In this document: in pieces, positions 1 to 16,664 of the stretch
How positions within the stretch are numbered: position 1 is the first letter of the stretch
How the letters are laid out: the number at the start of each line of letters is the position of its first letter
DNA from: Oscillibacter sp.
GTDB taxonomy: Bacteria; Bacillota; Clostridia; Oscillospirales; Oscillospiraceae
NCBI GenBank assembly: GCA_014799845.1
Contig: JAAVHF010000050.1
Location: 1,935-65,934 of the forward strand
Length of the DNA stretch: 64,000 nucleotides
Reading direction: 5' to 3'
Made by a program: the position numbers and the translations under genes
The notes under the pieces: generated by a model
Database searches by the model: none
What the model was told of the DNA's origin: nothing
The model's input: only the letters and a program-made list of their open reading frames with translations

Positions 1-1
1 T

Positions 2-1780
2 ATGATACGAAATTACTTTGAGCCGGAGCTGGACGGGGAATACAGCGATTTCCTCGGGGTGCGGCTTGCGCGGATTTCCATTGGGGCGCGCTATGTGGGG
101 GCAATCCATGAGCTGTGGAACTGCCCCGGTGATGTCTACGGGTTGGAGCGAACCATCCTGCACCACGACGGGTATGTGGCTGCAATCAAGTCGCAGCGGA
201 AAAAAATAGACCGAAATATGAAACCGCTGCGGGAGAAGCTGATGCAATATCCCGAAGACATGAAAACTCTCCTGCAATGCATTGAAAGCGCACAGGGCGA
301 TTCCTCCTATGAGGGGTATATCCGGCAGGCGGCGGCAGTTGTAGAGAAGAAGCCTCCTCAATGGGAGTATTATGGACCGCCGATTCTGCGGTATGCCGTT
401 CTTCATGCCGCAGGATACCATTTGCCTGAGTTGGAGCAGTGGAGCTCCGAAATGCTGGAGTGGTTCCCGGATTCCATCTATACCAGTATCGACGCAGCAT
501 ACGCGCTTTTTGCTGACCACGCGGGAAAGCAGGAGTATTCCCAGGCAATCGAGATGGGAGAACGATATCTGAGCGCCCTGTCGGATTACCAAAAAGGGCA
601 GTTTGACTACAAATCTCTGATTTTCAGTTCCCTGGCCATGTCCACTCAATCCCGGGAGAACGCTGCCCGGGCCATCTTGGCGGACGCCTACTTCCATGAG
701 GGCCAGCCCGACAAAGCCCGGGAGATGCTGCTGACAATTGACCGCGCCAGGATTCGTCCCGAGGCGGTGCAAAACTATATTGGGATCATGATGAACATCC
801 ATGCCAAGGGCGAAGTGGACATGTCCCCCATTTTGGCGGATTTCTGGGAGAAGACCGAGCGGCCGGAGCTGCAAAAAAAGCAGGGCGAGGCACGCCGGAA
901 GGCTGTGGTGGCTGCTGCCGCGGCTGCCTTTACCCAGGATTACCGCAAGGCGGAGGATGAGAGCGGCTCCCGCCATGCCTACACGCTGTTCCTGCCCCTG
1001 GCAGAGAAGAGCGGTTTGGGTACCGCCGCCGCGATCCTGGAGACCGGCGACCGGCAGGAGATGGAGCGGCTGCTGCGGACCGTGGACGACTGGACGGAGC
1101 TGCCTGTTGCCGCGCTGGAGCGGGCCCTGTTGGCCGGAGTGGTTTTCCCCTTGCCGGACCGGCCGTTGACGCTGGAAGAAATGGATAACCTGGCGGCACG
1201 GCTGGCGCAGAACGGGAGCTATCTGCCGGAATTTCTGGACAAGGCTGTCCAGACACTGGACGAGGAGCCTCAATCCCTGGCCTGGGCCAGGGGGCTGGCG
1301 CTGGCCGCCCTGCGCAGCGAAGACTGGGAAGCGGACGGGGACGGCATGACGGCCATCAGGACATTTGCCATAATAGAGCGTGCGTTCCTGTCCCGGTATT
1401 ACGCCCCGGCAATGCTCTGCGGAGAGAATATCTGCCTGCTGCCGCCAATGCACCGTTTCGGCTGGTACTGCGCACGGGCGTTTGATACTTTGGATGCGGG
1501 AGACACGGCGGGCTACGTGCGCCTGCTGCGGGAGGGGCTGGCCCAATGCGAAAATATGAAGCCCGTAGTAGAATTTTTGCTGAAACAGCTGGAGGAGAGC
1601 CACAAGGTCCAGGCCACGCCGGAGCTGCTGCGTCTGGCGGAACAGGTGCGGGCCCTGCTGGCTATGTATCCGGCCGATGACCCGGCGGTAAAGGCGTTGA
1701 AACAGAGCGACGCCTATCAAAAGGTGGCGCATTTGATTGAAGGCCCGGATCTGGGCGTATTGGGAGGTCTGCCGCAATGA
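2..1780 (+). CDS. C-terminal part of a glycosyltransferase (GT2-like) fused to a long TPR-like helical-repeat region; the 5' end is outside the window
   Basis: The frame is open from the window edge. The first residues (VRLARISIGARYVGAIHELW) resemble the end of a GT2 catalytic domain as seen in TPR-containing glycosyltransferases. The remainder is Ala/Leu-rich helical repeats. The stop overlaps the next start (ATGA at 1777-1780). Confidence 0.55.
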   Translation: MIRNYFEPELDGEYSDFLGVRLARISIGARYVGAIHELWNCPGDVYGLERTILHHDGYVAAIKSQRKKIDRNMKPLREKLMQYPEDMKTLLQCIESAQGDSSYEGYIRQAAAVVEKKPPQWEYYGPPILRYAVLHAAGYHLPELEQWSSEMLEWFPDSIYTSIDAAYALFADHAGKQEYSQAIEMGERYLSALSDYQKGQFDYKSLIFSSLAMSTQSRENAARAILADAYFHEGQPDKAREMLLTIDRARIRPEAVQNYIGIMMNIHAKGEVDMSPILADFWEKTERPELQKKQGEARRKAVVAAAAAAFTQDYRKAEDESGSRHAYTLFLPLAEKSGLGTAAAILETGDRQEMERLLRTVDDWTELPVAALERALLAGVVFPLPDRPLTLEEMDNLAARLAQNGSYLPEFLDKAVQTLDEEPQSLAWARGLALAALRSEDWEADGDGMTAIRTFAIIERAFLSRYYAPAMLCGENICLLPPMHRFGWYCARAFDTLDAGDTAGYVRLLREGLAQCENMKPVVEFLLKQLEESHKVQATPELLRLAEQVRALLAMYPADDPAVKALKQSDAYQKVAHLIEGPDLGVLGGLPQ

Positions 1781-2568
1781 AAGTTGTTATCCTGGCCGGC
1801 GGTCTGGGCACTCGCATCAGCGAAGAGAGCCATTTGAAACCAAAACCCATGATTACGATTGGCGACCAACCGATTTTGTGGCACATCATGAAATATTATT
1901 CCAGCTTCGGATTTCATGATTTTATCATCTGCTGCGGTTACAAGGGGCACGTCATCAAGGAATATTTTGCGGATTATTACCTGTACCGGTCCGATGTAAC
2001 CTTTGATTTTTCCGCGGATAACCGCATGACGGTCCATCAGAATGTCGCGGAACCCTGGCGGGTGACTCTGGTAGATACCGGCCTGAATACACAAACCGGA
2101 GCGCGGGTAAAACGTGTTCAGAAGTACATCGGACAGGAAGCCTTTATGCTCACATATGGCGACGGTGTAAGCGATGTAGATTTGAATGCTTTGCTGGAGC
2201 AGCACAGGAAATCCGGCAAGACGGTTACCCTCACGGGCATCCAGCCCGGCGGACGTTTTGGCGTACTGGATCTGGAAGGCCAGACCGTCACCGGGTTCCG
2301 TGAGAAGGCAAAAGAAGACGGTGGCTGGATCAACGGCGGTTTTATGGTGATGGAACCCGGCGTGTTTGACTACCTCAGCACGGAAGAAAGCTGCGTGATG
2401 GAGCAAGAGCCGATGAAAGCGCTGGCACATAACGGGGAGCTGGGCATCTACAAGCACACCGGTTTCTGGCAGTGCATGGATACCCAGCGGGACCGCAGCC
2501 AGCTGGAAGCAATATGGAACAGGGGCCGCGCACCGTGGGCGCCCTGGCTGGAGGGAGGAGCAGAATGA
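1777..2568 (+). CDS. rfbF: glucose-1-phosphate cytidylyltransferase (CDP-glucose synthase)
   Basis: It aligns end to end by eye with Salmonella RfbF: MKVVILAGGLGTRISEE..KPKPM..PILWHIMK.Y...G..DFIICCGYKG..IKEYF, GGFMV, GFWQCMDT.RD. The length of 263 aa is typical. Confidence 0.9.
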   Translation: MKVVILAGGLGTRISEESHLKPKPMITIGDQPILWHIMKYYSSFGFHDFIICCGYKGHVIKEYFADYYLYRSDVTFDFSADNRMTVHQNVAEPWRVTLVDTGLNTQTGARVKRVQKYIGQEAFMLTYGDGVSDVDLNALLEQHRKSGKTVTLTGIQPGGRFGVLDLEGQTVTGFREKAKEDGGWINGGFMVMEPGVFDYLSTEESCVMEQEPMKALAHNGELGIYKHTGFWQCMDTQRDRSQLEAIWNRGRAPWAPWLEGGAE

Positions 2569-3677
2569 ACACATTTCAGCTTTTGCGGGCAAAGACCCTG
2601 GATTTACGTCTGACGCGTCCCTTAACGCCTGAAAGGCAGCAGAACAGTACGGAAAACCAGGAAGAGGCTCTGGCAGGGAAGCAGATTTTAAGTACTATGC
2701 CCCGCCGTTTTGTCTTTGAATTGACCAACGCCTGCAATTTGAGATGCAAAATGTGCGGCCGCAATTCTGCGGATTTTCAGCCCACCTGGTTTCAGATGGA
2801 CTGGCTGAAATATTTCGAGCCCGCGGCACACCTTGTAGAAGAGGTAACCCTGATGGGATGGGGAGAACCCACCGTTCATCCCCATTTCGCGGAATTTCTG
2901 AGCTGGGCTTACCGCCTGGGACTGCGGAAATATTTCTGTACCAACGGAATGCGGCTGGACAAGCTCTTCGATGATATTTTCAGCACAGAGACCGACATTA
3001 TTGCGGTGAGTATGGATGGCGCCTGTGCCGAGACGAACGAGGAGATTCGCCGTGGAGCGGATTTCCACAAAATCCTTCAGAATATCTCCGCTATTACCGA
3101 GTACAAAGCCACACACGGTTCGCAGTTCCCGTACATGAACTTTGTCTTTACCGCCATGGAGCAAAATCTGGGTGAGCTTCCTGAGCTGGTGCGTCTGGCG
3201 GGAGAGATTGGGCTGGATGAAGTAAAGGTCGTTTATCTCACCGCTTTTGACGAGGCGATGGCCGCTGACGTTCTTTATGATAAGATGGCCCGGACGCGGG
3301 ATGTATTTCAGGCCGCGATCGAAGTTGGTAAAGCGCAAAATGTGTCTTTGAAGCTTCCCCACCTGGTAGGGGAAGACCCTGCCGGCACACAGTGCCACAA
3401 AGACTGCTATACCGCATGGAGAGACTTTTTCATTGGGTCTGACGGATATGTCCGGCCATGTATGTCCACGGCGGAAAAGCTGTTCCCAATCAGCAAATAC
3501 GACACTTTTGCCGAAATGTGGAACGCGGCGGAATATCAGCAGCACCGGAGCGCAGTCAACGCAGATAAAATGGCGCTGGCCTGCCGGAATTGCTATCAGT
3601 CTTCTTACGCAAACTGGAACAAAAGGGAGTCCTTTTTGCAGATCGGAAAACAGTTCTCACCTGAGTGGAAAAAGTAA
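2565..3677 (+). CDS. radical SAM enzyme with a C-terminal SPASM/twitch-like Cys cluster; function unknown
   Basis: It has the CxxxCxxC motif (NACNLRCKMCG) and GWGEP. C-terminal cysteines are CHKDC...GSDGYVRPC...CRNCY. The chosen start is ATG 2565 (MNTFQ), which overlaps the rfbF stop as ATGA. The longer track ORF from 2472 lies inside rfbF. Confidence 0.8.
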   Translation: MNTFQLLRAKTLDLRLTRPLTPERQQNSTENQEEALAGKQILSTMPRRFVFELTNACNLRCKMCGRNSADFQPTWFQMDWLKYFEPAAHLVEEVTLMGWGEPTVHPHFAEFLSWAYRLGLRKYFCTNGMRLDKLFDDIFSTETDIIAVSMDGACAETNEEIRRGADFHKILQNISAITEYKATHGSQFPYMNFVFTAMEQNLGELPELVRLAGEIGLDEVKVVYLTAFDEAMAADVLYDKMARTRDVFQAAIEVGKAQNVSLKLPHLVGEDPAGTQCHKDCYTAWRDFFIGSDGYVRPCMSTAEKLFPISKYDTFAEMWNAAEYQQHRSAVNADKMALACRNCYQSSYANWNKRESFLQIGKQFSPEWKK

Positions 3678-3713
3678 ATACTATATCAATGCACACAAAG
3701 AGGACCTTGGCTT

Positions 3714-4745
3714 ATGATTTATCAGCTTGCTATCAATCCGCCTGAAAAGCTTCAAAACTATGCGGTATTGTACATTCAGATGGATAACGGCCCGCTGGAC
3801 GGATTCCCGGTTTTGTCCATTGATCAGAACAGCTACATTGTACACGCAGACATACAAAGCGGGATCGATATTCGTTACGCTCAAGGCTGTCATTGCATTG
3901 CTATCGGCAAAGGCTGCTCGCTGGCGGATGATATTACGTTCATTATCGATATTAATCATGACTACAAATCTGTTGTACAGGGTACGCCTGCATTCTTGGA
4001 TACTGTGGAACGCATTGAAAAAATTTCCCGAAAAGGCACCGTCATCATCCAGAACGATGTTTGGGTCGGTCATGGGGCGACAATCATGGCGGGCGTCACA
4101 TTGCATAACGGATGTGTTGTCGCAGCACAGGCAGTGGTCACAAAAGATGTTCCTCCTTATGCCATCGTAGGCGGAAATCCTGCAAAAATTCTGCGTTATC
4201 GCTTTGACCAGGAAGTTATTGCCGGGCTGCAGAAAATTGCATGGTGGGATTGGCCGGAACACCTGCAAAGAAAATACCGAATGGATTTTGTATTACCGGC
4301 AGAAGAATTTGTAAAGAAACATCTTCCACATGAAGATGAAATTTCTGATGTCAAATCTTCCGGCCTGTTTACGGATGAAGAAAAGAATATTGTGTTTTTT
4401 CCGGCAGATGTCGGAGATCCCTTTCCGCTGTATCCGAAAATTTTAACGGCATATTTTAAGAAAGACCGGCCAGGCACAGAGCTGATCATCTATTTGCCGG
4501 AAGATCTTTCCAGTCAGAGGAATATTGAAGCAATTGAAAGAATTCTGGAAAAATATGAATCACGGGACAGTTATGTTACATTTCAGGCCGGTATTACGAT
4601 GGACGAAGAGATGCTTTTCCGCGAGGCAGATTTCTATGTTACTACACGCAGCCAAAACACCGTTCATCGCACCTGCCTTGCTGACCGCTATGGAGTAAAA
4701 ATCCTTTATGGAACGGACTCTGGTGTATTTCCGGATGAACTATGA
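3714..4745 (+). CDS. hexapeptide-repeat (left-handed beta-helix) acyltransferase of the xenobiotic-acetyltransferase (Vat/CatB-like) class, with a C-terminal extension of about 150 aa of unknown function
   Basis: Motifs: DINHDYKSV and IIQNDVWVGHGATIMAGVTLHNGCVVAAQAVVTKDVPPYAIVGGNPAKILRYRF..WWDWP. It is a paralog of 11833-12903 over both the LbH domain and the extension. Confidence 0.7.
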   Translation: MIYQLAINPPEKLQNYAVLYIQMDNGPLDGFPVLSIDQNSYIVHADIQSGIDIRYAQGCHCIAIGKGCSLADDITFIIDINHDYKSVVQGTPAFLDTVERIEKISRKGTVIIQNDVWVGHGATIMAGVTLHNGCVVAAQAVVTKDVPPYAIVGGNPAKILRYRFDQEVIAGLQKIAWWDWPEHLQRKYRMDFVLPAEEFVKKHLPHEDEISDVKSSGLFTDEEKNIVFFPADVGDPFPLYPKILTAYFKKDRPGTELIIYLPEDLSSQRNIEAIERILEKYESRDSYVTFQAGITMDEEMLFREADFYVTTRSQNTVHRTCLADRYGVKILYGTDSGVFPDEL

Positions 4746-4794
4746 CAGGAAATGTCTGATTAGCATACAAACCAAATGGACAGGGGACTAATCT

Positions 4795-6648
4795 ATGAAC
4801 CAGACGCATATGGAACTTATTTCACGCATATTTGAGCTGTTTGATACCGGCGAAGAAGCAATTCAGTTTTTGGATGCACAGGGGCTGGACGGAGGGCAGT
4901 TCCTTCTGCCCGATCTGGAAGCGTTATGTACGTCGATCGCCTCCGCTATTGAGAAGCTCGCTCCGCAAATAAGCCTGAAGAACAAACTGCATGAGATCGG
5001 CCTGAACGCGCCGCCGACTGTTGCCCGGATCTGCCAGGCTTTGGGCGCCCGGGAGACCGGGTCTGCTGAGATGCACTACAGATGCTCCTTTGTTCCGCTG
5101 TTCCGGTTTTGGCGGCGGTATGCGGAGTTTTTCCTGGTTCATGCGGTTGACGAAACATCTCTGCGCAGCTGGTACAGAGAAGAATTTGAGCTATTCCGGC
5201 AAATCCGCGAAACTCCTAAGCAGGATGAAGACAGAGAATATCGGTACGATTTCTCTATTGTCGTGCTGTTTTATGGCAATCAGAAAATGACAAAGGACTG
5301 TCTTGACGCGATTGAAACCTATACGCGGGGGCATAGCTACGAACTGATTACCTTTGACAATGGGAGTGATCCGGAAACTACCGCGTGGTGTGAATCGCTG
5401 CCTCATGTGAAGAAAATATATTATCCGCACAACATGGGGTCTTCTGCTGCGGGAAACATGATTTTCACGATGGCCTCCAGCTACATGGAAGGAAAATATC
5501 TGCTCTATGTCAGCAATGATGTGATTGTTACGCCGAGATACGCGGATATCCTTTACCGGTGCATGGAGAGCGACGCGCGGATCGCCGTGGCAGTACCTCT
5601 CTGCAACTCGGCCAGCAATCTGCAGGCAATTCCTGTTCCGTACGCCCCCAATGATATGGAGGCGATGCAGGAATTTGCTGAAAATTTTAATCAGTGCAAT
5701 CCTCAGAAATGGGCTGACCGGGCTCGTTTGTTCTCCATTCTGGCGAGTATGCGGCCGCAGGCGCTGGAGCAGATGCAGCTTGCCATTGACCCCTTTTTCT
5801 GTTACGACATGTTCGCTGACGATGATTTCTGCTGCGCATTGCGCCGGATGGGATATCGTCAGGTTCTATGCACCGACGCGTTTGTCCATCATTACGGCTC
5901 TGCCACCATTAAAGAGAGCCAGTTCCAGGTTATGCATTTGGGACGGGAGCAGTTCTATCAGAAATATGGTGTAGACGCATGGAATTCCCTGGGGACCGAG
6001 CTGTGTGCCGCAATCAATACCATTTCGTTTCATCAGCCGGGTCTTCTCCGCATTCTTGCTATCAATCCTTTGTTCGGGGAAAGCGTACTGGCCCTGTGTA
6101 ACCGGCTGCGTGAATGCGGATGTGACAGTATAGCAGTCGATGCGCTGACAGAAGATAACCGCTATCTGGATGATATGGAGGCGCTTTTTCAGCGGAGCGG
6201 ACTGCTGCAGGACGAAAATCAGGCGGCAGAAGGCCGGTATGATATTATTCTTGTAGGAACCGATCTGGATCGCTGCCGCGATTTGCGGGCAGTCATTCAT
6301 GCTGCGGCCAAATATTTGAGGTATGGCGGCATATTCATCACACAGCACAAGAATCATACTAATTTTCTGACCTTATATAACTTTTTGCAGGGCAATGCGA
6401 TGGAAAACGATATTTTTGCCCATGATTCACAGGAGAATCCCGGGATTGTCTCAATTCCTGACGGTGCGCTGGAATTGCTTATGAGCCAGTCCGGACTGAA
6501 GCCGAAACAGGCCATCCGGGTGACCAACAGCTCATGGAAACCCAACATAGAGCAAATCCTCAATGTGTTCAATATTGAAAACCGCGAGAAGGCTGAGCAG
6601 CTTCTGCTGACCTCGGATACATTCTGTATTTGGGAGAAAGGCCGCTGA
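4795..6648 (+). CDS. multidomain glycosyltransferase family 2 protein: unknown N-terminal region of about 150 aa, a GT2 core, and a C-terminal Rossmann/methyltransferase-like region
   Basis: The GT2 signature is FSIVVLFYGNQKMTKDCLDAIETYT..YELITFDNGSDPET. The C-terminal part (RILAINP..., YDIILVGTDLD, YLRYGGIFI) resembles a class I SAM-methyltransferase fold. Confidence 0.7.
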   Translation: MNQTHMELISRIFELFDTGEEAIQFLDAQGLDGGQFLLPDLEALCTSIASAIEKLAPQISLKNKLHEIGLNAPPTVARICQALGARETGSAEMHYRCSFVPLFRFWRRYAEFFLVHAVDETSLRSWYREEFELFRQIRETPKQDEDREYRYDFSIVVLFYGNQKMTKDCLDAIETYTRGHSYELITFDNGSDPETTAWCESLPHVKKIYYPHNMGSSAAGNMIFTMASSYMEGKYLLYVSNDVIVTPRYADILYRCMESDARIAVAVPLCNSASNLQAIPVPYAPNDMEAMQEFAENFNQCNPQKWADRARLFSILASMRPQALEQMQLAIDPFFCYDMFADDDFCCALRRMGYRQVLCTDAFVHHYGSATIKESQFQVMHLGREQFYQKYGVDAWNSLGTELCAAINTISFHQPGLLRILAINPLFGESVLALCNRLRECGCDSIAVDALTEDNRYLDDMEALFQRSGLLQDENQAAEGRYDIILVGTDLDRCRDLRAVIHAAAKYLRYGGIFITQHKNHTNFLTLYNFLQGNAMENDIFAHDSQENPGIVSIPDGALELLMSQSGLKPKQAIRVTNSSWKPNIEQILNVFNIENREKAEQLLLTSDTFCIWEKGR

Positions 6649-6671
6649 AGAAATGGAGGTATCCAGCTGTG

Positions 6672-7730
6672 ATGGTGGATTTGGCTTTCTATCGGGGAAA
6701 ACGGGTCCTGGTAACCGGCCATACAGGATTCAAGGGGACATGGCTGTGCTGGATGCTGTCCTCACTGGGGGCAGAGGTGTTCGGATACGCGCTTCCGCCA
6801 CAGGCGGATTGTCTGTATCAAAAGGGGAAACCTCCTGTGTCCGCGGAAGTCATGGCAGACGTCCGGAACAGCGCGGAATTGGAACGGGCGGTTACCCGGT
6901 TTGAGCCGGAGCTGGTGTTTCATCTGGCGGCTCATTCTTATATAGATGGCTCCTATGATTTCCCGAAAGACATTTTCGATATCAATCTGATGGGTACGGT
7001 AAACTTACTGGAGGCCATCAGAAAGGCTGACAGAAGAATACCGGCAGTAGTCGTTACCAGCGATAAGTGCTACACGCAGAAGCTGGCGGGGAAACCTTGT
7101 CAGGAGGCCGATCCGTTTGGAGCGGCGGAAGCGTATTCCACCAGCAAGGCCTGTCAGGATCTGGCGGCACAGTGCTATCAGCTTTCGTTTCCCGGTATGG
7201 CCGTTGCTGCCGCGCGTGCCAGCAACACGATCGGCGGAGGAGATTTCAATAGGTCCCGGCTGATCCCGTATCTCCTGGATTGTTTTATTCAGGGAGAGCC
7301 TGCAAATCTCCGTAATCCTCACCATGTCCGGCCGTGGCAATACGTTCTTGACGTTCTGTGGGGATACCTGCTTCTGGGGAAAGCTTTAGCGGAAAGCTCA
7401 ATAAGCGGGGAGACATCCTACAATTTCGGTCCCGCGCCGGATGGATTTCAGACCGTGGGAGAAGTGGCGGAACAGCTGGCGGAGCAGTTCCATAACGCCC
7501 AATACCGCTGGCAGAGTACCGGCCGCTCCAGTGAAACGGAAATCCTGCGGTTGGACAGCGGCAAAGCCTTCCGGGAATTGGGCTGGCATCCGCTTTACAG
7601 TCTCAGAGAAACACTGATTCAAACGGCAGATTTTCACAAAAGGATGCAGACTGGTTCCCTGGCGCAGCTATGTCAGGAGTATGTTCAGCAATACATTGAC
7701 TGTGTTCAGACAGGAAAGGGAGCGTCATGA
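6672..7730 (+). CDS. rfbG: CDP-glucose 4,6-dehydratase
   Basis: FYRGKRVLVTGHTGFKGTWL matches the N-terminus of Salmonella RfbG. Other motifs: TSDKCY, YSTSK (YxxxK), RPWQYVLD. The start is set at MVDL (ATG 6672) by alignment to RfbG; the track ORF begins at 6630. Confidence 0.9.
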   Translation: MVDLAFYRGKRVLVTGHTGFKGTWLCWMLSSLGAEVFGYALPPQADCLYQKGKPPVSAEVMADVRNSAELERAVTRFEPELVFHLAAHSYIDGSYDFPKDIFDINLMGTVNLLEAIRKADRRIPAVVVTSDKCYTQKLAGKPCQEADPFGAAEAYSTSKACQDLAAQCYQLSFPGMAVAAARASNTIGGGDFNRSRLIPYLLDCFIQGEPANLRNPHHVRPWQYVLDVLWGYLLLGKALAESSISGETSYNFGPAPDGFQTVGEVAEQLAEQFHNAQYRWQSTGRSSETEILRLDSGKAFRELGWHPLYSLRETLIQTADFHKRMQTGSLAQLCQEYVQQYIDCVQTGKGAS

Positions 7731-8887
7731 GAGCCCTGATCGTAGGCGCGGGCTGCTGCGGGGCCAGCGCCGCCCGCCGTTTGGCGGAGTATGGCTGGCA
7801 AGTGACGGTGGCAGACCGGCGGGATCATATTGGCGGAAACGCTTACGACCAGCGGGATGAGAACGGAATCCTCTATCACGTCTACGGGCCGCATGTTTTT
7901 TTCACCAATCGAAAAGAAGTCTGGAATTTCCTGTCCCCATTTTCAGAATGGGTTCCGTTTCGCTGCAGCCTGCGCGTGTGGATCGAGGGCTGCAGCTATC
8001 CCATGCCCTTTCAGCCGGAGACACTGCGGGGACTGCTCCCCGGCCATGCGGACGCGGTCCTGGCGGCAATGAAACGTCAATGGAGCGGGAGAAGCTGCGT
8101 AACGGTGCTGGAGCTGCTGACGGCCGGCGATCCCCTGCTCAGGCTGGCGGGACAGAGACTGTATGACTGTGACTGTATGCCCTACAACCAGAAGCAGTGG
8201 GGACTGCGCCCGGATGAGCTGCTGCCGGAGGTAATTGCCCGTGCGCCGGTTTATTTGGAAGATCAGCGCGATTTTCGGTCGGAGGCATATCAGTTTATGC
8301 CGGCAAATGGGTTCACTCCGGTATTTCAGGCCATGTTGAATCACCCATCCATAGAAATTCAGACTTCCGTTGACGCCTTTGACCTGCTGTCTGTCTCGGA
8401 TGGCAGGATAACATGGAAAACCTCGCGTCAATGGGATGTCGTCCTCTATACCGGACCTATAGACCGGCTGTTTGGGAATCAGGCTGGACCACTTCCCTAT
8501 CGTACTCTGCGCTTCGATATGCAGATACGGGATGTACGGGCGGGGCTGCCCTGTTTGGCAATGTACTACCCTGAAACGCAATTCCCCTGGACCAGGTGTA
8601 CAGACTATCGCTACCTGCCGGGAAATGCAGGCAGCCCGGAGAAGACCTTGGTGATCAGCGAACGCCCCGGACCCGTGATCAGCCCAAAGGATGAACTGTA
8701 CTATGTCGTGCTGACCGAACAATCAAAGGAACAATACCGGCGTTATCGCCAGATGGCAGAGCGCATACCTCATCTGTATGCGGCAGGCCGGCTGGCGGAT
8801 TTTCAATACTATAACATGGACGCAGCGGTGGAACGCGGACTGGAAGCAGCGGAAGAGATCCACCGCAGAGAGAGGGGTTGCGCATGA
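7727..8887 (+). CDS. UDP-galactopyranose mutase family flavoenzyme (nucleotide-sugar pyranose/furanose mutase); substrate uncertain
   Basis: It has the GxGxxG FAD motif (VGAGCCGASAA). HIGGNAY...YGPHVFFTN, YNQKQWG, YTGPIDRLF, YRTLRF and AGRLADFQYYNMD align with E. coli Glf. It is ATGA-coupled to rfbG. Confidence 0.8.
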   Translation: MRALIVGAGCCGASAARRLAEYGWQVTVADRRDHIGGNAYDQRDENGILYHVYGPHVFFTNRKEVWNFLSPFSEWVPFRCSLRVWIEGCSYPMPFQPETLRGLLPGHADAVLAAMKRQWSGRSCVTVLELLTAGDPLLRLAGQRLYDCDCMPYNQKQWGLRPDELLPEVIARAPVYLEDQRDFRSEAYQFMPANGFTPVFQAMLNHPSIEIQTSVDAFDLLSVSDGRITWKTSRQWDVVLYTGPIDRLFGNQAGPLPYRTLRFDMQIRDVRAGLPCLAMYYPETQFPWTRCTDYRYLPGNAGSPEKTLVISERPGPVISPKDELYYVVLTEQSKEQYRRYRQMAERIPHLYAAGRLADFQYYNMDAAVERGLEAAEEIHRRERGCA

Positions 8888-9699
8888 GGATCACCGATCC
8901 AGAAGAATTTGCCCGCGCAGTTCGGATGCACGTGGCCGGAACATTATCCCGTACCCGGGATTCTCACATCGGCGGCGGTTATTCTGCGGCAGACATCCTG
9001 GCCGTGCTGTATACCAGAATACTGGGCCTGACGCCGGATAATCTGAATGACCCAAACAGGAACGTCTTTCTCCTGAGTAAAGGCCACATAGCCGCCACAT
9101 TCTATACTGCCCTGGCTTATGCCGGATTGATCCCTATGGAGGATTTGGCGCTGCATGTGGTGGACGGCGAAAACTACGCGGGGCATACCCGCCGGTTTGT
9201 TGTGCCCGGAGTGGAAATGTCCGCCGGCTCTCTTGGACATGGGGCAAATTTAGGGACCGGGATTGCTTACGCCAAGAAGCTCCAGAGCCTGGACGGCCGG
9301 GTTTTTGTACTGATGGGGGATGGCGAATGCAACGAGGGAAGCGTCTGGGAAGCGGCTATGTTTGCATCGCGTTTTTCCCTCAACAACCTGATTCTGATCG
9401 TTGATCGGAACCGTTTACAGTCCTATGGAAGCGATGAGCAGGTATTGAACATGGGTGACATGGCGGAAAAATTCCGCGCCTTCGGCTGCCGTACGGTCGA
9501 GGTGGACGGTCACGACTATACCGCGCTGGAAAACCTGTTTTCTCAGATCGGCTTGGACGGCGATTCCAGGCCGACCGCAGTGATTGCCCATACGATAAAG
9601 GGCAAGGGTGTGTCTTTTATGGAAAACCGGCTGGAATGGCACTTCAAATCCCCGAACGAGGAGCAGCTGGCCCAGGCACTGGAGGAATTGAGCCGATGA
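8884..9699 (+). CDS. transketolase, N-terminal (ThDP pyrophosphate-binding) subunit
   Basis: Motifs: HIGGGYSAADILAVLY, LSKGH, GSLGHG, GDGECNEGSVWEA. ATG 8884 overlaps the stop of the previous gene (ATGA). Confidence 0.8.
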   Translation: MRITDPEEFARAVRMHVAGTLSRTRDSHIGGGYSAADILAVLYTRILGLTPDNLNDPNRNVFLLSKGHIAATFYTALAYAGLIPMEDLALHVVDGENYAGHTRRFVVPGVEMSAGSLGHGANLGTGIAYAKKLQSLDGRVFVLMGDGECNEGSVWEAAMFASRFSLNNLILIVDRNRLQSYGSDEQVLNMGDMAEKFRAFGCRTVEVDGHDYTALENLFSQIGLDGDSRPTAVIAHTIKGKGVSFMENRLEWHFKSPNEEQLAQALEELSR

Positions 9700-10625
9700 G
9701 AGGTACGTTTATTCAGACAGTCTCCCGTCTGGCCAGAGAGGACCCGAAGGTCATGCTGGTCATTGGGGATACGGGCTTTTCCGTCATGGAGCCCTTTGAG
9801 GCGGAATTTGGTCCGCGTTTTATCAATGCAGGCATCGCGGAACAGAGCTTTATTTCCTTTTCCGCCGGGCTGGCCGCAATGGGATTAAGGCCATTTGCTT
9901 ACAACGTGGTGTCGTTCATGACACTGCGCAGCGCGGAACAGATCCTGCTGGATATCTGTTACCAGGAGAATCCTGTCATACTGGTAGGCGTCGGAGGCGG
10001 TTTTGCCTATGGACCGGCAGGACCGACGCATCACTCTCTGCAGGATATCGCGATGATGCGGGCATTCCCCAATATGGATGTGTATTGTCCCGCTGATCCG
10101 GCTGAAATGGAAGCCGTTATGTTGACCGCGTACCACAGGGAGCGCCCGGCGTACATCCGCATAGGACGGAGCGTAGATGCGCCAATCCATGCGCGGGCGC
10201 TGCGTCCTCCGGTGGAACGGGCAATTGCCTTATCTCAGGGAGAAGATATCGCGATCCTGGCTTGTGGTACGATTCTGCGTGAAGCGGTGGAAGCATGTGC
10301 GCTTCTGAAACAGAAGGGATGCTCGGTTACGCTTTACAGCGTCCCCTGTGTGCAGCCTTTGGATGATGAGACAATTCTGGCATGCGCGGACAGACACAAA
10401 GCCGTTTTCACGATGGAGGAGCACGGGATTACCGGCGGACTGGGAAGCGCTGTGGCAGAGCTGCTGATGGAGCAGGGACACAAACGGCCCGTATTTCACC
10501 GGTATGGCATTCCGGATTCTTTTGCGATGGTGACAGGGGCCAGAGATTATCAGCTCAGGTACTTTGGCCTGTCTCCGGAACAGGTGGCAGAGGATATGTG
10601 GAAACGGTGGAAGGGTACTGTATGA
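9696..10625 (+). CDS. transketolase, C-terminal (pyrimidine-binding) subunit
   Basis: Motifs: FINAGIAEQ, GPTHH, and a typical C-terminal domain. ATG 9696 (MRGTF) overlaps the stop of the N-terminal subunit (ATGA). Confidence 0.8.
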   Translation: MRGTFIQTVSRLAREDPKVMLVIGDTGFSVMEPFEAEFGPRFINAGIAEQSFISFSAGLAAMGLRPFAYNVVSFMTLRSAEQILLDICYQENPVILVGVGGGFAYGPAGPTHHSLQDIAMMRAFPNMDVYCPADPAEMEAVMLTAYHRERPAYIRIGRSVDAPIHARALRPPVERAIALSQGEDIAILACGTILREAVEACALLKQKGCSVTLYSVPCVQPLDDETILACADRHKAVFTMEEHGITGGLGSAVAELLMEQGHKRPVFHRYGIPDSFAMVTGARDYQLRYFGLSPEQVAEDMWKRWKGTV

Positions 10626-11815
10626 ATGATATGATCGGCAACATTTTTACCCGTTTTGAGCAGGAACGGCCTCGGCTGGAACAGACGGTAGAGGAACTGA
10701 AGGAAGCGCTGCGCCGCTATGACGGCGTAGTCCTCTATGGAGCCGGGAGCAGCGGGATCGCACTGCTGCTTGCATTGCGGCGGGCCGGCATTCAGCCCCT
10801 TTGCTTTGCAGACGGTGCGCCGGAAAAATGGGGAACGGCCTGCATGGGTCTGGAGGTCGTGCCGCCGCGGGAACTGACGCAGAGATATGGCGGCAATATA
10901 CTGGTACTTGTCTGCATCAATACGGACGGGCAGACGTATTGCCGCAGCTTTGATGAGGCTCTGCGGCAGGGCGGCCACAGCGGCGTTCATCAGCGGCTGC
11001 GCGATTGCGGGTGCCGGCATGTTGTTGACTATATTGCCCTGCGCCGCTGTTTCCAGCTGTTTCGCGGGGATAATACGGGCAATCTTCCATCCTGCCCGGA
11101 CATCGAGTGCCTCCTGGCCCATCAGGAAAATATCCGTCAGGTTTACGATCAGCTGGCAGACAGTCTGTCCAAAGAGATTTACGCGAATATTCTGACCTTC
11201 CGGCTGTTTGGAGAAGGTCCGGAAATCCCGACCCTGCCGCAGGAAGAAAAATATTTCCCGTCGGAGCTGGTTCAACTCTCACCCAATGAAGTGTTTGTGG
11301 ATTGCGGCGCATTTGACGGACAGACATTTCGTGACTTGCTGGCGCAGACCGGCGGGTGTATCGAATCTTACTATGCGCTGGAGCCGGACGCGGCCAATTT
11401 CAAGCGACTGGAGCAGTTTGCGGCTCAGCTTCCACCAGAAATGCGGGAGAGAATGACCTTGCTGCCCTGCGCGGCATGGAGCGAAGAGACAACGGTTCCG
11501 CTGTATGCGCTGCATGGACCGGGGAGTTTTGCGGCTCCCTATGGCACGGCAAATGTGAGGGCTGCTACGATCGACAGCATCCTGAACGGACGCCGGGCTA
11601 CGGCAATCAAGATGAATATTGAAGGTTCTGAGCTGGAGGCACTGAAAGGTGCGCGGTCAACAATTCGGCAATGGCATCCGAAGCTGATGGTTGCCGGGTA
11701 CCATAAGACCTGGGACTTTTGGGAAGTGCCGGAGCTGATGATGCGGGCGGGGTATACCGTCTGCTTGCGGTCTTATATGCATCATCTGTCGTTTGTGTTT
11801 TATGGAATGGTGTGA
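10622..11815 (+). CDS. FkbM-family SAM-dependent methyltransferase with an N-terminal Rossmann-like extension
   Basis: The FkbM motifs VFVDCGAFDGQT and IKMNIEGSELEALKGA are present. The start ATG 10622 overlaps the previous stop. Confidence 0.7.
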   Translation: MNDMIGNIFTRFEQERPRLEQTVEELKEALRRYDGVVLYGAGSSGIALLLALRRAGIQPLCFADGAPEKWGTACMGLEVVPPRELTQRYGGNILVLVCINTDGQTYCRSFDEALRQGGHSGVHQRLRDCGCRHVVDYIALRRCFQLFRGDNTGNLPSCPDIECLLAHQENIRQVYDQLADSLSKEIYANILTFRLFGEGPEIPTLPQEEKYFPSELVQLSPNEVFVDCGAFDGQTFRDLLAQTGGCIESYYALEPDAANFKRLEQFAAQLPPEMRERMTLLPCAAWSEETTVPLYALHGPGSFAAPYGTANVRAATIDSILNGRRATAIKMNIEGSELEALKGARSTIRQWHPKLMVAGYHKTWDFWEVPELMMRAGYTVCLRSYMHHLSFVFYGMV

Positions 11816-11832
11816 GGCAGAAAGGATATATT

Positions 11833-12903
11833 ATGCTGATTAACATTAACGGGATTGATGCCAGAAATATGACGCGGTTATCTGCTATGCAGTATTCGCA
11901 GCCGAACAATGCCAGTTTTCAGAATTTTCCCGCTTTGATTCTGGATCGCTACAGTGGTATCACAGGCCTGACGATTTGGGCAAGAGCAGGAGAGGAGAAT
12001 GGTTTGGATGAAGGCTGCTACGAGGTATATGTCGGAGCATTTTGTCCGATTTCAAATCAGGTCCTGTTTCTGGTCGATGTCAATCACGATTATGAATCGA
12101 TATCCATGTCCGGACAGATTCCGGATTTGATTCCCGTTTCCTTTAGAAAGCAGCGCAAGGGGTCCATTATCATTCAGAATGATGTTTGGATCGGATACGG
12201 CGTCACAATTATGAGCGGCGTCACAATACACAATGGCGCTGTCATAGCCTCAAATTCTACGGTGACGAAGGATGTCCCGCCATACGCTATTGTAGCCGGG
12301 AGTCCTGCAAGGATTATCAAATATCGTTTCGAGCCGGAAATTATCGAGGGGCTGCAGCAGATTCAGTGGTGGTACTGGGATGAAGCAACCATCAAAAAGC
12401 GCAGTTCCTGGTTTCAGCGGTCACCGGCAGAGTTTGTAGAGAGATTCGGCGCGTCCGCAGGGGGAGGGCATATATCTTCCGCTCACAGACTGCTGGATGA
12501 GCAGCTTAACAACATTCCTCGTGAAAATTTGTACCTGGTATTTTCGGATATGGATAGTCCTTACAGTGTTCTTCGGAAAATCATTAAGAGTTTCTCTGAA
12601 ACACATACGGAAAATGATTGTCTCGTTGTTTCTATCGAAAATAACACAAGGGCAATAGAGCAAATGCAGGCAATTTATGAATTCGCAGAAGGTATAGACA
12701 CTGAATGCAGTCTGTATGTCCGCAGCACAGACAGCCGGGATATCCCGGCTCTGATTGCCACATGCGGGACATTGGTTACCAGCAGGGTTCTGGAGCTGGT
12801 CAGGTACACATGTGCAGCGGACCTCGCTGGGACGCGAGTTGTCTCTGGTGTGGATTATCCGATTTTTCAGAAGCATGGTGCAGAATTGATAACAGGACAG
12901 TGA
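11833..12903 (+). CDS. second XAT-class hexapeptide acyltransferase with a C-terminal extension (paralog of 3714-4745)
   Basis: Motifs: VNHDYESI and IIQNDVWIGYGVTIMSGVTIHNGAVIASNSTVTKDVPPYAIVAGSPARIIKYRF..WWYWD. ATG 11833 has an upstream AAAGGA. The region is visibly AT-richer than its flanks. Confidence 0.7.
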   Translation: MLININGIDARNMTRLSAMQYSQPNNASFQNFPALILDRYSGITGLTIWARAGEENGLDEGCYEVYVGAFCPISNQVLFLVDVNHDYESISMSGQIPDLIPVSFRKQRKGSIIIQNDVWIGYGVTIMSGVTIHNGAVIASNSTVTKDVPPYAIVAGSPARIIKYRFEPEIIEGLQQIQWWYWDEATIKKRSSWFQRSPAEFVERFGASAGGGHISSAHRLLDEQLNNIPRENLYLVFSDMDSPYSVLRKIIKSFSETHTENDCLVVSIENNTRAIEQMQAIYEFAEGIDTECSLYVRSTDSRDIPALIATCGTLVTSRVLELVRYTCAADLAGTRVVSGVDYPIFQKHGAELITGQ

Positions 12904-12910
12904 GAGGAAA

Positions 12911-13095: not shown

Positions 13096-13146
13096 ACAGG
13101 CTCTAAAAAGTGGGGTTGGCGTACAAGTATATAAAAATGTAATGAT

Positions 13147-13233: not shown

Positions 13234-13268
13234 TGGAATAATCTTCAAGAAGGGAAGAAAATGCAGTT

Positions 13269-14441
13269 ATGTCTACTGTCTTAGAGCTGTTAGCTGAAAT
13301 TTCGAAGGAACAGTCGGCGCGCTCAGAAAAAAAGCTTGTTCTGGAGAAAAAGTTTGAGGCTTACGGTAAGGAGATTGTTATATATGGTCATGGAAATTTA
13401 GGCTGTGAATTGTGTAAAGGGCTGGAGAACGCAAACTGGACTGTTCAATATTTCCTCGATGCCAATCAGCCGACAGATTTAAATAGAAAAAATGTGAACC
13501 TGAAGGACGCGGCTAAATATCTGACCCCGGACGCGTTGATTATAGTAGCAATCTATAATGTTTATTTGGAATATTCATCTATACAACGTCAGCTGCAATC
13601 CATGGGATTCCAAAATATTCTCAGCGTCCTTGATTTGCGCGTGTGGCCCGAGCTGTTTCAGACAGGGCATATTCATGGCACGCTCAGCTGGGATATTTCC
13701 CATATCCCGGCTGAACCGGTATGTGAGGCGTACTCTCTCATGGAGGACTCCCTCTCTCAAAAGACATTTTTAGAATTGCTTCGGTTTTTTATTTCTGACA
13801 ATGAGCCAACGCTCACTCTTTGTCCGGCAGAAATGCAGTACATGCCAGCATTGACATACCTGCCTATAGCGGAGGAACGCATTATTGATTGCGGCGCATA
13901 TAATGGAGACACTATGCGGGCTTTCTACTCGGAAACAGCAAACTGGAGTTCATACATTGCGATAGAACCGGATCCGCAGAACATGGAGAAATTGGCGGCA
14001 TCCATTCAAGCAGACTTGCCCGAAGCTCTTGCAAAGCGGACAAAAACAATTTGCGCGGCAGTATCTGATGTGTCCGGCAGCATCACCTTTTGTACAAAGG
14101 GGAACGCCGCCAGTCATATAACAGAAGAAGCGGTTGATCAAATCTCACGTGTCCCGGTTATAAGCCTGGATGAGGTCATTCAGGAACCTGTGTCACTGAT
14201 TAAGATGGATATAGAAGGCTTTGAACTCCGCGCCTTGCAAGGCGCGGAGAGGCTGATTCGCGCGAATCAGCCTCTCCTGGCGATTTGTGGTTACCACCGG
14301 CAGTCGGATCTCTGGGAGATTCCATTATATATGAAAAAAGTTTTGCCGAACCATCGCATTTACCTGCGGAACTATATTGGGATTATTGAGTATGTCTTTT
14401 ATGCTGTTCCGGAAAATCGTGTTATAAGTGAGAAACAATGA
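13269..14441 (+). CDS. FkbM-family methyltransferase (second copy, divergent)
   Basis: Motifs: IIDCGAYNGDT and IKMDIEGFELRALQGA. It has the same two-domain layout as 10622-11815. The region is AT-richer. Confidence 0.7.
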   Translation: MSTVLELLAEISKEQSARSEKKLVLEKKFEAYGKEIVIYGHGNLGCELCKGLENANWTVQYFLDANQPTDLNRKNVNLKDAAKYLTPDALIIVAIYNVYLEYSSIQRQLQSMGFQNILSVLDLRVWPELFQTGHIHGTLSWDISHIPAEPVCEAYSLMEDSLSQKTFLELLRFFISDNEPTLTLCPAEMQYMPALTYLPIAEERIIDCGAYNGDTMRAFYSETANWSSYIAIEPDPQNMEKLAASIQADLPEALAKRTKTICAAVSDVSGSITFCTKGNAASHITEEAVDQISRVPVISLDEVIQEPVSLIKMDIEGFELRALQGAERLIRANQPLLAICGYHRQSDLWEIPLYMKKVLPNHRIYLRNYIGIIEYVFYAVPENRVISEKQ

Positions 14442-15448
14442 ATCCTGTACTCGACTTAGATTTTAAAGAAATCGAACAGCTGCCCCTTCCATGGAGTGAA
14501 TTGAAAGGGACTAAAATTCTACTTACTGGCGCTACAGGTTTTATTTGCAAATACCTTGTTGAGATGCTCGCCAGGGTAAGTATTGAGAAAAATCTTGAAA
14601 TGGAGTTTTGGCTTTTCCGACGGCGCGGCGCACCAGAAAGTCTGCAATGTTCAAACGTACACTGGATTGCGGGAGATATTACGGAAGCGTTTCTGCCTGA
14701 GGATTTCAGGCCCAATATAATTATCCATGCTGCCAGTCCCGCTAATACAAAAGCACATATTTGCGATCCCGTCGGCCTGTCGCAAACAAATATTTTAGCT
14801 ACGCGTTACTTGCTGGAGTGCGCCCGGAAACATGGAGCCACCTTTGTCTATTTTAGCAGCGCCGCGGTTTACTTGAATCAGTCCGGAACCTTCTCGGAAG
14901 TAAGCCCGGGTGAACTAGTAAAAAGCAATGCAACATTCTCGCTGTACGGGGCAAGCAAGCTGGCGGGTGAACTGCTCTGCGAAGATTATCGCCGGAATTT
15001 TGGCGTGGATTGCCGTATTATTCGTCCATTTAGTATTCATGGTCCAGGTGAATCTCTAGACAGTGGGCGTTATTTTCCAGATTTTCTTCGTCAAGCTCTA
15101 AGGGATAAAGAGATTACCGTAACAGGAACAGGAACCCCAGTGAGGGATTCCTGCTATCTTATGGATTTTGTAAGTGGATTGCTATATGTTTTGCTAAAGG
15201 GTAATAGCACGGCTTACAATATCGGAAACGAAGACAATGTCTACACAATTTTGGAACTAGCCCAGAAGATTGCGGGACAAAGCGGAAGTTTAAACGTTAT
15301 TGGGCCATTGTCCTTAACAGATCATACATCTGGCGACTTTTTTGTTTCAGATACCGCAAAGCTGCGGCAATTGGGTTGGAAACCACAGGTAGATCTGCCG
15401 GCCTGTATCCAACGGTGCCTGGACAGCTACCGTTATGCTGGTTCGTGA
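14438..15448 (+). CDS. NAD(P)-dependent extended SDR (sugar epimerase / 4-ketoreductase type)
   Basis: Motifs: LLTGATGFICKYLV (GxxGxxG) and YGASKLAGE (YxxxK). It is ATGA-coupled to the upstream gene. Confidence 0.75.
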   Translation: MNPVLDLDFKEIEQLPLPWSELKGTKILLTGATGFICKYLVEMLARVSIEKNLEMEFWLFRRRGAPESLQCSNVHWIAGDITEAFLPEDFRPNIIIHAASPANTKAHICDPVGLSQTNILATRYLLECARKHGATFVYFSSAAVYLNQSGTFSEVSPGELVKSNATFSLYGASKLAGELLCEDYRRNFGVDCRIIRPFSIHGPGESLDSGRYFPDFLRQALRDKEITVTGTGTPVRDSCYLMDFVSGLLYVLLKGNSTAYNIGNEDNVYTILELAQKIAGQSGSLNVIGPLSLTDHTSGDFFVSDTAKLRQLGWKPQVDLPACIQRCLDSYRYAGS

Positions 15449-15533
15449 ACGAGATGGATGCCAGAAATGTGATGCGGCAGCCATTAAACAGTGAATATGC
15501 TGAAAAACCCTTGGTGTTAGGAGGTATAGTCTG

Positions 15534-16664
15534 ATGGTAAACCAGAGAAAAAAGATTCCCCTTGCAGGGCCATTTATTACGCAAAAAGAAATCGACTATG
15601 TGCATGACGCCGTTGTAACCGGCTGGTATGAAACCTATGACAAACACATCCGTCAATTGGAGCAGGCTTTTGCGGACTATGTAGGCGCGAAGTACGCCAT
15701 TGCAACATACTGTGGAACCCATGCGCTTCATTTGGCGGCGTTAGCCTTACAATTAGGTCCGGAAGATGAAGTTATTGTCGCAGATCAGAGCTATATCGCT
15801 ACGGCACACGCCTTATCCTACGCAGGCGCAAAATGCGTATTTGCGGATGTTCTGCCAGATACTCTCTGCATTGACCCCCGGCAAATTGAAGCGCTGGTTA
15901 CACCAAAGACAAAAGCCATCATGGTAGTCCATTTCGGCGGTTTTACCTGCGACATGGATGCAGTTATGAATATTGCTAGAAAACACCGGCTGGCGGTTAT
16001 TGAAGACGCATGCCAGGCAGTGGGAACATTTTACCGGGGAATGCACGCGGGAACTATTGGCGATATTGGTACATTCAGTTTCCAGGGGGCTAAAATCGCT
16101 GTAGGCGGTGAGGGCGGTATGCTCGTCACCAACAGCGAGGAACTGTATCAGCGAGCCAAACACTATGGAACCTTTTGCAGAAATGATGCGATCCAGTATC
16201 TCTGGTCAGACGATATTGGTTACAACTACCGCATATCCAACATCACAGCTGCTTTGATTCTGGCACAAATCGAACGAATAGATGAATTGGTGGCAAATAA
16301 GAAACGCATTTTTGAAAGCTATAAGAAAAAACTTGCGAACAATCCGTATTTTGAAATGCTGCTTCCCCCTGTAGATTGCCGGCCAAACTACGGTTATGTG
16401 CTGGGATATTTGCGGGATGAGGTGAATATAGACCGCGATGCTTTTGTAAAGAGGATGCTGGATCTGAACATCCACTTCCGCCCAGGCTATCCCGCCATGC
16501 ACCGAATGCCGCCGTACGGGCAGACGCACGCGCTGCCAAACTCAGACCGCTATGACAGACGGGGCCTTGTTTTGCCAACCGCGCACTCTTTGACAGAAGA
16601 AGATATCGCCGTTGTCTGTGATACGCTCAATCGGTCAATCGAAATTTTAATGGAGGGCAAGTAA
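15534..16664 (+). CDS. DegT/DnrJ/EryC1/StrS-family PLP-dependent sugar aminotransferase
   Basis: Family layout: KEIDYV.DAV.TGW, GTHALHLA, and FSFQGAKIAVGGEGGML with the Schiff-base Lys retained. That Lys argues against an E1/ColD-type dehydrase. Confidence 0.85.
   Translation: MVNQRKKIPLAGPFITQKEIDYVHDAVVTGWYETYDKHIRQLEQAFADYVGAKYAIATYCGTHALHLAALALQLGPEDEVIVADQSYIATAHALSYAGAKCVFADVLPDTLCIDPRQIEALVTPKTKAIMVVHFGGFTCDMDAVMNIARKHRLAVIEDACQAVGTFYRGMHAGTIGDIGTFSFQGAKIAVGGEGGMLVTNSEELYQRAKHYGTFCRNDAIQYLWSDDIGYNYRISNITAALILAQIERIDELVANKKRIFESYKKKLANNPYFEMLLPPVDCRPNYGYVLGYLRDEVNIDRDAFVKRMLDLNIHFRPGYPAMHRMPPYGQTHALPNSDRYDRRGLVLPTAHSLTEEDIAVVCDTLNRSIEILMEGK

Follow-up and report, generated by a model that had tools for sequence, protein, structure and literature searches.

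The genes at positions 8884-10625 of the window analysed here, a stretch of 64,000 nucleotides from Oscillibacter sp. (assembly GCA_014799845.1, contig JAAVHF010000050.1), encode the two halves of a split transketolase. We propose, with somewhat better than even confidence, that they form a heteromeric, thiamine diphosphate (ThDP)-dependent carboligase of transketolase fold which is dedicated to a cytidine diphosphate (CDP)-sugar pathway and which would transfer a two-carbon (C2) ketol unit to give a C-branched sugar. The two genes, and the names used for their products below, are as follows.

8884-9699 (+): TK-N, 271 amino acids, ThDP/Mg-binding subunit of the specialised split transketolase (Transketolase_N 108.8 bits)
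9696-10625 (+): TK-C, 309 amino acids, pyrimidine-binding and C-terminal subunit of the specialised split transketolase (Transket_pyr 105.6 bits, Transketolase_C 90.2 bits)

Comparisons were made with 38 related loci from a scan of species-representative genomes, which together with the window give a set of 39 loci from Clostridia. As read from the sequence, the stop codon of TK-N and the start codon of TK-C overlap in the ATGA at 9696-9699, and this in-frame overlap is kept in all 39 loci. The same arrangement joins the stop of a Glf-like mutase gene to the start of TK-N (8884-8887) and the stop of TK-C to the start of an FkbM-family methyltransferase gene (10622-10625). A preliminary description of the window had stated that the subunits are coupled to each other and to these two neighbours, and both statements were confirmed. 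Four more ATGA overlaps occur in the operon, making seven in all: between the genes for a glycosyltransferase and a cytidylyltransferase, the cytidylyltransferase and a radical S-adenosylmethionine (SAM) protein, a 4,6-dehydratase and the Glf-like mutase, and a second FkbM-family methyltransferase and a short-chain dehydrogenase/reductase (SDR). The FkbM gene directly follows TK-C in 36 of the 38 loci having a downstream gene. Coupling of TK-N to the Glf-like gene is confined to a subgroup of the Oscillospiraceae, while elsewhere the 4,6-dehydratase gene stands directly 5' of TK-N. The start codons chosen match those of homologues, and every TK-C homologue opens with M-R-x-T-F.

The three families of a split-gene transketolase, PF00456, PF02779 and PF02780, were all found above cut-off, and the equivalents of D155, N185 and E411 are present, which cover the GDG...N motif for ThDP/Mg in the N subunit and the cofactor-activating Glu in the C subunit. 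The nearest PDB matches are 6YAK, the N chain of a split transketolase, for TK-N (220 bits) and 6YAJ for TK-C (168.7 bits). The pair has no TPP_enzyme domains, the TPP_enzyme_N/M/C fold being that of YerE-like lyases. E1_dh is not the best family assignment of TK-N (42.1 bits vs 108.8 bits for Transketolase_N), and pyruvate dehydrogenase E1 families of NCBIfam match the pair with at most 51 bits.

Housekeeping and cluster-type transketolases

The genome is a metagenome-assembled genome (MAG), 74% complete and in 104 contigs. A search of it with Transketolase_N gave two places: the cluster pair and a second split pair on contig C32 (L003:8109-8957 and L003:8960-9901). With the transketolase model NF004559 the C32 pair scores 318 bits per subunit and the cluster pair 245 and 154 bits; the two pairs are 43% identical in the N subunit and 35% in the C subunit. 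Of 41 genomes sampled across the class, 40 have the C32 type (55-88% identity); of 201 genomes sampled from the family, only 2 have the cluster type at a threshold of E <= 1e-70. The cluster type is absent from both surveyed genomes of the same genus, each of which is 97% complete. The separate housekeeping tkt that the preliminary description had proposed to look for is thus present as the canonical split pair on C32. This pair lies about 5 kb downstream of genes for a CsaB pyruvyl transferase and a MurJ-like flippase (L003:552-3181), uncoupled from them.

A first tree was built from 213 TK-C sequences, comprising 30 Clostridia housekeeping sequences, 142 representatives from a search of the whole library, the 39 loci, and E. 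coli TktA and Dxs. In this tree the housekeeping sequences and TktA fall in one clade and 179 glycan-type sequences in another, with FastTree support of 86-96. In an IQ-TREE analysis of 72 rows, the Shimodaira-Hasegawa-like approximate likelihood ratio test (SH-aLRT) gave 99 for the housekeeping side of the branch and 87 for the glycan side. The window TK-C stands within a Clostridial subclade having 99% support. By its position in these trees the cluster pair is a member of a large clade, set apart from the housekeeping one and made up of remodelled split transketolases; more than 140 clusters at 50% identity were found among the best matches. The phylogeny against metabolic transketolases, also suggested earlier, thus leaves the pair outside the housekeeping clade; it neither groups with the housekeeping enzymes nor is the conserved copy of its genome.

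The canonical pair on C32, the distribution and the separate clade rule out the cluster pair as the housekeeping transketolase of this genome. A weaker form of the same idea is that an ordinary metabolic transketolase came by chance to stand in a glycan locus, where it might supply sugar phosphates. Both subunits do match transketolase families and all the cofactor residues are present. Against this stand the canonical pair elsewhere in the genome, the separate clade, the loss of H461 and D469 (see below), the rare and patchy distribution and an invariant linkage to CDP-sugar genes, and we find this explanation hardly credible. The earlier claim that the pair is part of a glycan operon rather than of a pentose-phosphate locus holds on three of these grounds, namely the canonical pair elsewhere, the separate clade and the linkage to CDP-sugar genes.

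Active site and choice of donor

Residues were compared in an alignment with E. coli tktA from NC_000913.3 as the reference, and the numbering is that of E. coli TktA. All 39 TK-N sequences keep H26, H66, H100, H261, D155 and N185. TK-C keeps E411, H473 and R520, and the equivalent of R358 is its invariant Arg2. The catalytic histidines of metabolic transketolases (His26, His66, His100, His261 and His473) are all present in the window pair and in all 39 related pairs. Clade-specific changes in TK-N are Q118H, I189S/A, D190Y and G262F, and the changes in TK-C are H461G, E468P, D469A and F434V (V/I) together with a shortened S385 loop. Position 469 is Ala in the window pair and Leu, Ala, Gln or another residue across nearly all of the 143 representatives, these being the best matches at 50% clustering; nearly all of them combine Gly at 461 with a residue other than Asp at 469. 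As a control, the genome's own housekeeping pair carries the canonical residues, and Asp469 is found both there and in E. coli TktA.

In transketolases, H461, S385, R358 and R520 hold the phosphate of the substrate, D469 binds the C2-hydroxyl of the aldose acceptor, and the ketol bound to ThDP is contacted at its hydroxyl by H100 and H473. Of the phosphate site the cluster pair retains Arg358 and Arg520, whereas His461 is replaced by Gly and the Ser385 loop is shorter. Because of these known roles, the pattern of kept and changed residues points to an intact cofactor site and intact donor-side chemistry with a rebuilt acceptor pocket. The conserved residues and the family matches show a dedicated enzyme of predicted transketolase fold with an intact cofactor site in the operon, and the residue pattern as a whole fits the proposed transfer of a C2 ketol to a CDP-keto-sugar.

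The donor could also be a different one. In an alternative reading the pair is DXS- or E1-like, comparable to AviB1/AviB2 and KbDH-alpha/beta, and would decarboxylate pyruvate and add an acetyl unit (from hydroxyethyl-ThDP) instead of a hydroxyacetyl unit to the CDP-keto-sugar. After the split transketolases, the next solved relatives of TK-C are DXS enzymes with 123.9 bits rather than full-length transketolases with 94 bits, and TIGR00204 (dxs) is the top NCBIfam match of TK-C. TK-N also matches E1_dh (42 bits), and the known C2-branching enzymes of antibiotic sugars are of the E1 type (PMC12247030). However, the genome's own housekeeping TK-C scores even higher on the dxs model (215.9 bits), so that split transketolases in general resemble DXS. 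Furthermore, the Transketolase_N score of TK-N far exceeds its E1_dh score, and all 39 sequences retain His100 and His473, which in transketolases bind the ketol intermediate at its C1-hydroxyl. We consider an acetyl-transferring pair unlikely, and transfer of a hydroxyacetyl unit is preferred in what follows.

The operon, related loci and flagellin

The operon lies on the plus strand and spans from upstream of base 1 to 19185 of the window. Its remaining genes are listed below; counts give the number of the 39 loci with a homologue within 10 kb of TK-C.

1..1780 (+): family 2 glycosyltransferase (GT2) with a tetratricopeptide repeat (TPR) region, C-terminal 592 of 708 amino acids, the gene beginning 347 bases before the window; Glycos_transf_2 47.5 bits and a weak TPR match
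1777..2568 (+): glucose-1-phosphate cytidylyltransferase of the RfbF type; TIGR02623 399.4 bits (cut-off 300.25), ATGA overlaps at both ends, 34 loci
2565..3677 (+): radical SAM/SPASM protein, a conserved member of the cassette; Radical_SAM and SPASM domains, 31 loci
3714..4745 (+): hexapeptide-repeat acyltransferase, a variable tailoring gene; Hexapep, sub-threshold matches to Vat/CatB-like O-acetyltransferases, 5 loci
4795..6648 (+): GT2-family glycosyltransferase, 617 amino acids; Glycos_transf_2, 27 loci
6630..7730 (+): CDP-glucose 4,6-dehydratase of the RfbG type; TIGR02622 321.6 bits (cut-off 278.45), 39 loci, true start maybe at 6672
7727..8887 (+): Glf-like flavin mutase; GLF 157 bits, TIGR00031 288.6 bits (just under the cut-off of 303.75), 15 loci
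10622..11815 (+): FkbM-family methyltransferase, 397 amino acids, with an extra N-terminal domain; Methyltransf_21, TIGR01444, PDB 2PY6 89 bits, 37 loci
11812..12903 (+): second hexapeptide-repeat acyltransferase, variable; Hexapep, GTGA overlap with the FkbM stop, 4 loci
13269..14441 (+): second FkbM-family methyltransferase, 390 amino acids; Methyltransf_21 66 bits, 17 loci, preceded by a 365-bp gap and a drop in G+C
14438..15448 (+): SDR epimerase/reductase; Epimerase domain 139.7 bits, 15 loci
15534..16664 (+): sugar aminotransferase of the DegT/PseC/LegC type; DegT_DnrJ_EryC1 344 bits, LegC and PseC families sub-threshold, 21 loci
16666..17448 (+): sugar N-formyltransferase; Formyl_trans_N and N_formyltrans_C, sub-threshold match to a dTDP-4-amino-4,6-dideoxyglucose formyltransferase family
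17461..19185 (+): YerE/JanthE-like ThDP-dependent carboligase with the acetolactate synthase (ALS) fold; three TPP_enzyme domains, 33 loci

The scores of the RfbF and RfbG homologues, both above their equivalog cut-offs, show a predicted capacity of the operon to make CDP-4-keto-6-deoxy-D-glucose. The radical SAM protein matched no characterised reaction, its NCBIfam matches being sub-threshold and its PDB matches (SkfB, BlsE, PqqE) weak. The Glf-like protein is a candidate pyranose-to-furanose mutase for the CDP-sugar, and the SDR a candidate ketoreductase for the ring or the branch. The YerE-like protein scores below every ALS equivalog cut-off, and its nearest PDB match is 8RPH (309 bits vs 260 bits for ALS). 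This entry is cited in an engineering paper on JanthE (PMC12188165), which is a YerE-like enzyme (PMC12247030). With the transketolase pair, the operon therefore encodes two different ThDP carboligases.

A non-coding gap of 365 bp at 12904-13268 breaks the otherwise tight operon, and over the 5 kb that follow (region 12000-18000) the G+C content drops to 45-49%, vs 58-64% in the rest of the window. For the glycan island as a whole it is 45-56%, vs 58-64% for the remaining window. The gap and the drop in G+C suggest a mosaic junction between separately acquired modules. On the minus strand at 19283-24776, convergent with the end of the operon, are two glycoside hydrolases of family 32 (792 amino acids with Laminin_G_3, and 497 amino acids) and a PfkB sugar kinase, a locus for the utilisation of fructan or sucrose.

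Close homologues (65-88% identity) abound in Lawsonibacter, Oscillospiraceae, Lachnospiraceae, Ruminococcus and Parablautia muri; cultured carriers among the loci are P. muri and Ruminiclostridium hungatei DSM 14427. The 4,6-dehydratase is adjacent to or near the pair in all 39 loci (one gene upstream in the window), so that in these loci the split transketolase stands in a cluster predicted to generate a keto-sugar acceptor. Next in frequency come the 397-residue FkbM methyltransferase, the cytidylyltransferase, the YerE-like enzyme and the radical SAM/SPASM protein; the GT2, the DegT aminotransferase, an aldo-keto reductase (19 loci) and the Glf-like mutase are found less often. The co-occurrence with rfbF and rfbG that the preliminary description wished to see examined is thus 34 and 39 of the 39 loci, respectively. 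Behind the YerE-like gene, at least nine loci carry a further FkbM-like gene and one for an aldo-keto reductase, an arrangement suggestive of two parallel modules, each having a carboligase, a methyltransferase and a reductase.

The frequent presence of the YerE-like gene bears on a further explanation, in which the pair leaves the nucleotide sugar alone and instead forms or transforms a small molecule, a ketol or keto compound, that the YerE-like enzyme or another tailoring step would use as donor or precursor. The YerE-like gene accompanies the pair in 33 of the 39 loci, two phosphate ligands (R358 and R520) are retained, and YerE-like enzymes such as ErwE take unusual hydroxylated 2-oxo acids as donors (PMC12247030). 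However, transketolases make no 2-oxo acids, and the strictest partners of the pair are the 4,6-dehydratase and the FkbM gene directly downstream, not the YerE-like gene. In addition, one locus (L033) has the cassette without any YerE-like gene. A role confined to such small molecules therefore seems to us distinctly unlikely. Locus L033, from a MAG labelled Muribaculaceae, has at L033:10933-19103, in place of the YerE-like gene, a gene for an amine-oxidase-like flavoprotein immediately behind TK-C, as well as two large proteins whose domains resemble citrate lyase ligase.

The context of distant members of the clade was mostly available from contigs of 1-3 kb. One member (L080) stands beside a GT2 gene and another (L083) beside TylF, SDR, GT1 and Bac_transf genes. 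A third (L081:114-2090, P0145) is a protein of 658 amino acids in which a glycan-type TK-C is fused to a Zn-dependent alcohol dehydrogenase. Such a fusion is consistent with a product bearing a ketone that is then reduced.

The preliminary description had raised the removal of a C2 unit from the sugar as an option beside its addition. In this case the pair would break the C-C bond beside the 4-keto group, by retro-acyloin cleavage, by ring opening or re-closure or by C2 removal, and the skeleton would be shortened, epimerised or rearranged. Transketolase chemistry is reversible, and in the window a Glf-like enzyme of the ring-contracting kind adjoins the pair. On the other hand, transketolase donors end in a CH2OH-CO unit, which a 6-deoxy-4-hexulose does not have. 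No precedent exists, a Glf-like gene accompanies the pair in only 15 of the 39 loci, and the fusion of TK-C to an alcohol dehydrogenase better fits the formation of a new ketone. C2 removal is less likely than addition, and cleavage of the skeleton in any of these forms is in our view quite improbable.

The homologues of the cassette also indicate where the sugar may go. In two loci whose TK-C is about 81% identical to that of the window, the GT2 gene heading the cassette begins about 90-150 bp after the end of a flagellin gene (L012:1-3191, L016:1-2771). Flagellin genes in L014 and R. hungatei are on the same strand just beyond the fetched flank, and 11 of 41 loci, drawn from several families, have flagellin at a distance of no more than 10 kb from TK-C. 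Homologues of the window GT2-TPR come after flagellin in six loci, and in L012, L015, L016 and L019 they follow it directly, at 41-49% identity. In L047, three tandem flagellin genes lie upstream of the GT2(-TPR) gene. The full open reading frame of the window GT2-TPR gene is L084:1588-3714 on its own contig, and no segments resembling transmembrane helices were found in the protein, which is thus predicted to be soluble. The cassette is probably a flagellin glycosylation island, with the GT2-TPR as a candidate flagellin glycosyltransferase. Some Lachnospiraceae have a LytR-CpsA-Psr gene ahead of the cassette, so that in other carriers a wall polymer may receive the sugar.

The only clear flagellin gene of the window's own genome is cut by the edge of contig C11 (G000:C11:34-447, L085), and the glycan operon is on contig C50. 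The end of a flagellin gene was also looked for in the open reading frame of 431 amino acids at the start of the operon's contig; this was ruled out, as the protein has no Flagellin_C and no similarity to the flagellin of L012.

Proposed pathway and known systems

In the pathway that we propose, the RfbF and RfbG homologues would make CDP-4-keto-6-deoxy-D-glucose. The transketolase pair would load a two-carbon ketol (glycolaldehyde) unit onto ThDP from a donor that may be a ketose phosphate or hydroxypyruvate, and would add it to the ring ketone of this sugar, or of a compound that the radical SAM protein derives from it. The expected product carries a hydroxyacetyl C-branch on a tertiary alcohol. 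The FkbM enzyme encoded after TK-C would then methylate it, while reductases or the aminotransferase would process the new ketone. The YerE-like enzyme probably forms a second C-C bond, giving either another branch or an extension of the first one. Judging from the synteny in close relatives, the finished sugar would most likely be moved onto flagellin by the soluble GT2(-TPR) encoded at the head of the operon.

Several points weigh against this proposal. The donor, the acceptor and the position of attack of the transketolase pair are all inferred. The YerE-like enzyme could itself branch the CDP-4-keto sugar; because it is present in the cassette, the transketolase may act on a different carbon, on the product of the YerE-like enzyme or on a substrate that is not a nucleotide sugar. 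Where present, the DegT aminotransferase could use up the 4-keto group. TK-C is nearly as similar to DXS as to transketolase, and pyruvate may therefore be the donor. Finally, the link to flagellin in the genome itself is by homology and by synteny in relatives, as the contig starts 1.9 kb upstream of the window and carries there the unrelated 431-residue reading frame.

An extension of the pathway is possible but doubtful in our judgement: the transketolase pair and the YerE-like enzyme might act in turn on the same CDP-6-deoxyhexose, each step having its own FkbM methyltransferase and reductase, to give a doubly C-branched or long-branched methylated flagellin sugar. Were this so, transketolase-type C-branching of a nucleotide sugar would be demonstrated for the first time, and a new class of sugar would be placed on a major host-facing antigen. 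The product may decorate the flagella of gut Clostridia, flagella being a major target of both innate and adaptive immunity of the host. For biocatalysis, transketolase-type branching, if real here, would yield a route to hydroxy-functionalised tertiary alcohols.

Literature searches gave nothing relevant on transketolases in clusters for O-antigen, CDP-glucose polysaccharides or flagellin glycosylation, nor did one on split transketolases in sugar clusters, and transketolases are not mentioned by Steitz et al. 2022. Transketolase-type branching of sugars is not new as an idea; the published proposals concern only antibiotic clusters of Streptomyces. According to a review of 2025 (PMC12247030), the hydroxyacetyl branch of miharamycin and amipurimycin has been ascribed, as a proposal, to split transketolases, and 13 further putative ones, all from Streptomycetes, came from genome mining (Krug et al. 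2024, via PMC12247030). None of the split transketolases of the miharamycin/amipurimycin type has been characterised in vitro (PMC12247030), and the earlier remark that no characterised CDP-sugar pathway is known to use a transketolase holds.

Enzymes of the YerE and E1 types are known to C-branch nucleotide sugars with the help of ThDP (PMC12247030). In the YerE type a CDP-4-keto-6-deoxyhexose is branched with ThDP and the branch ketone then undergoes reduction (PMC12247030). The pair shares the CDP-glucose entry steps and the logic of the pathway with YerE/YerF of CDP-yersiniose A in Yersinia pseudotuberculosis and with ErwE and JanthE (PMC12247030). However, YerE has the acetolactate-synthase/decarboxylase fold and uses 2-oxo acid donors, whereas the pair has the transketolase fold. 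It is not simply a substitute for YerE, since a true YerE-like gene is also present at 17461-19185. AviB1/AviB2 and KbDH-alpha/beta (E1-type, alpha-KADH2) resemble the pair in being heteromeric alpha/beta ThDP enzymes, and they add a C2 unit to a nucleotide keto-sugar (PMC12247030). They belong to the E1 family of 2-oxo acid dehydrogenases and use pyruvate, whereas the pair keeps the transketolase set of histidines.

The two-subunit architecture, the fold and the cofactor and catalytic His/Glu residues are common to the pair, the split transketolase of Carboxydothermus hydrogenoformans (6YAK/6YAJ) and the housekeeping split transketolases of Clostridia. Unlike these canonical enzymes, the pair has H461G, D469A, the shortened S385 loop, F434V, G262F, D190Y and Q118H, and it differs from them in its separate clade, its accessory distribution and its place in a glycan operon. 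The remodelled split transketolases, as a large clade, are tied to CDP-glucose genes.

The miharamycin and amipurimycin systems likewise have a two-gene transketolase in a sugar-modifying cluster, and there too a keto-sugar is proposed to receive a C2 ketol, with a tertiary alcohol as the result. These transketolases, however, are from antibiotic clusters of actinomycetes, and their proposed substrates are nucleoside or sugar intermediates and not CDP-hexoses. Unlike the Streptomyces transketolases, the pair described here stands in a CDP-glucose cassette of gut Clostridia that is tied to flagellin genes and includes a YerE-like enzyme. What the locus adds to the published proposals is the conservation of a transketolase and a YerE-like enzyme together in Clostridia, a constant core of radical SAM and FkbM genes, and the linkage to flagellin.

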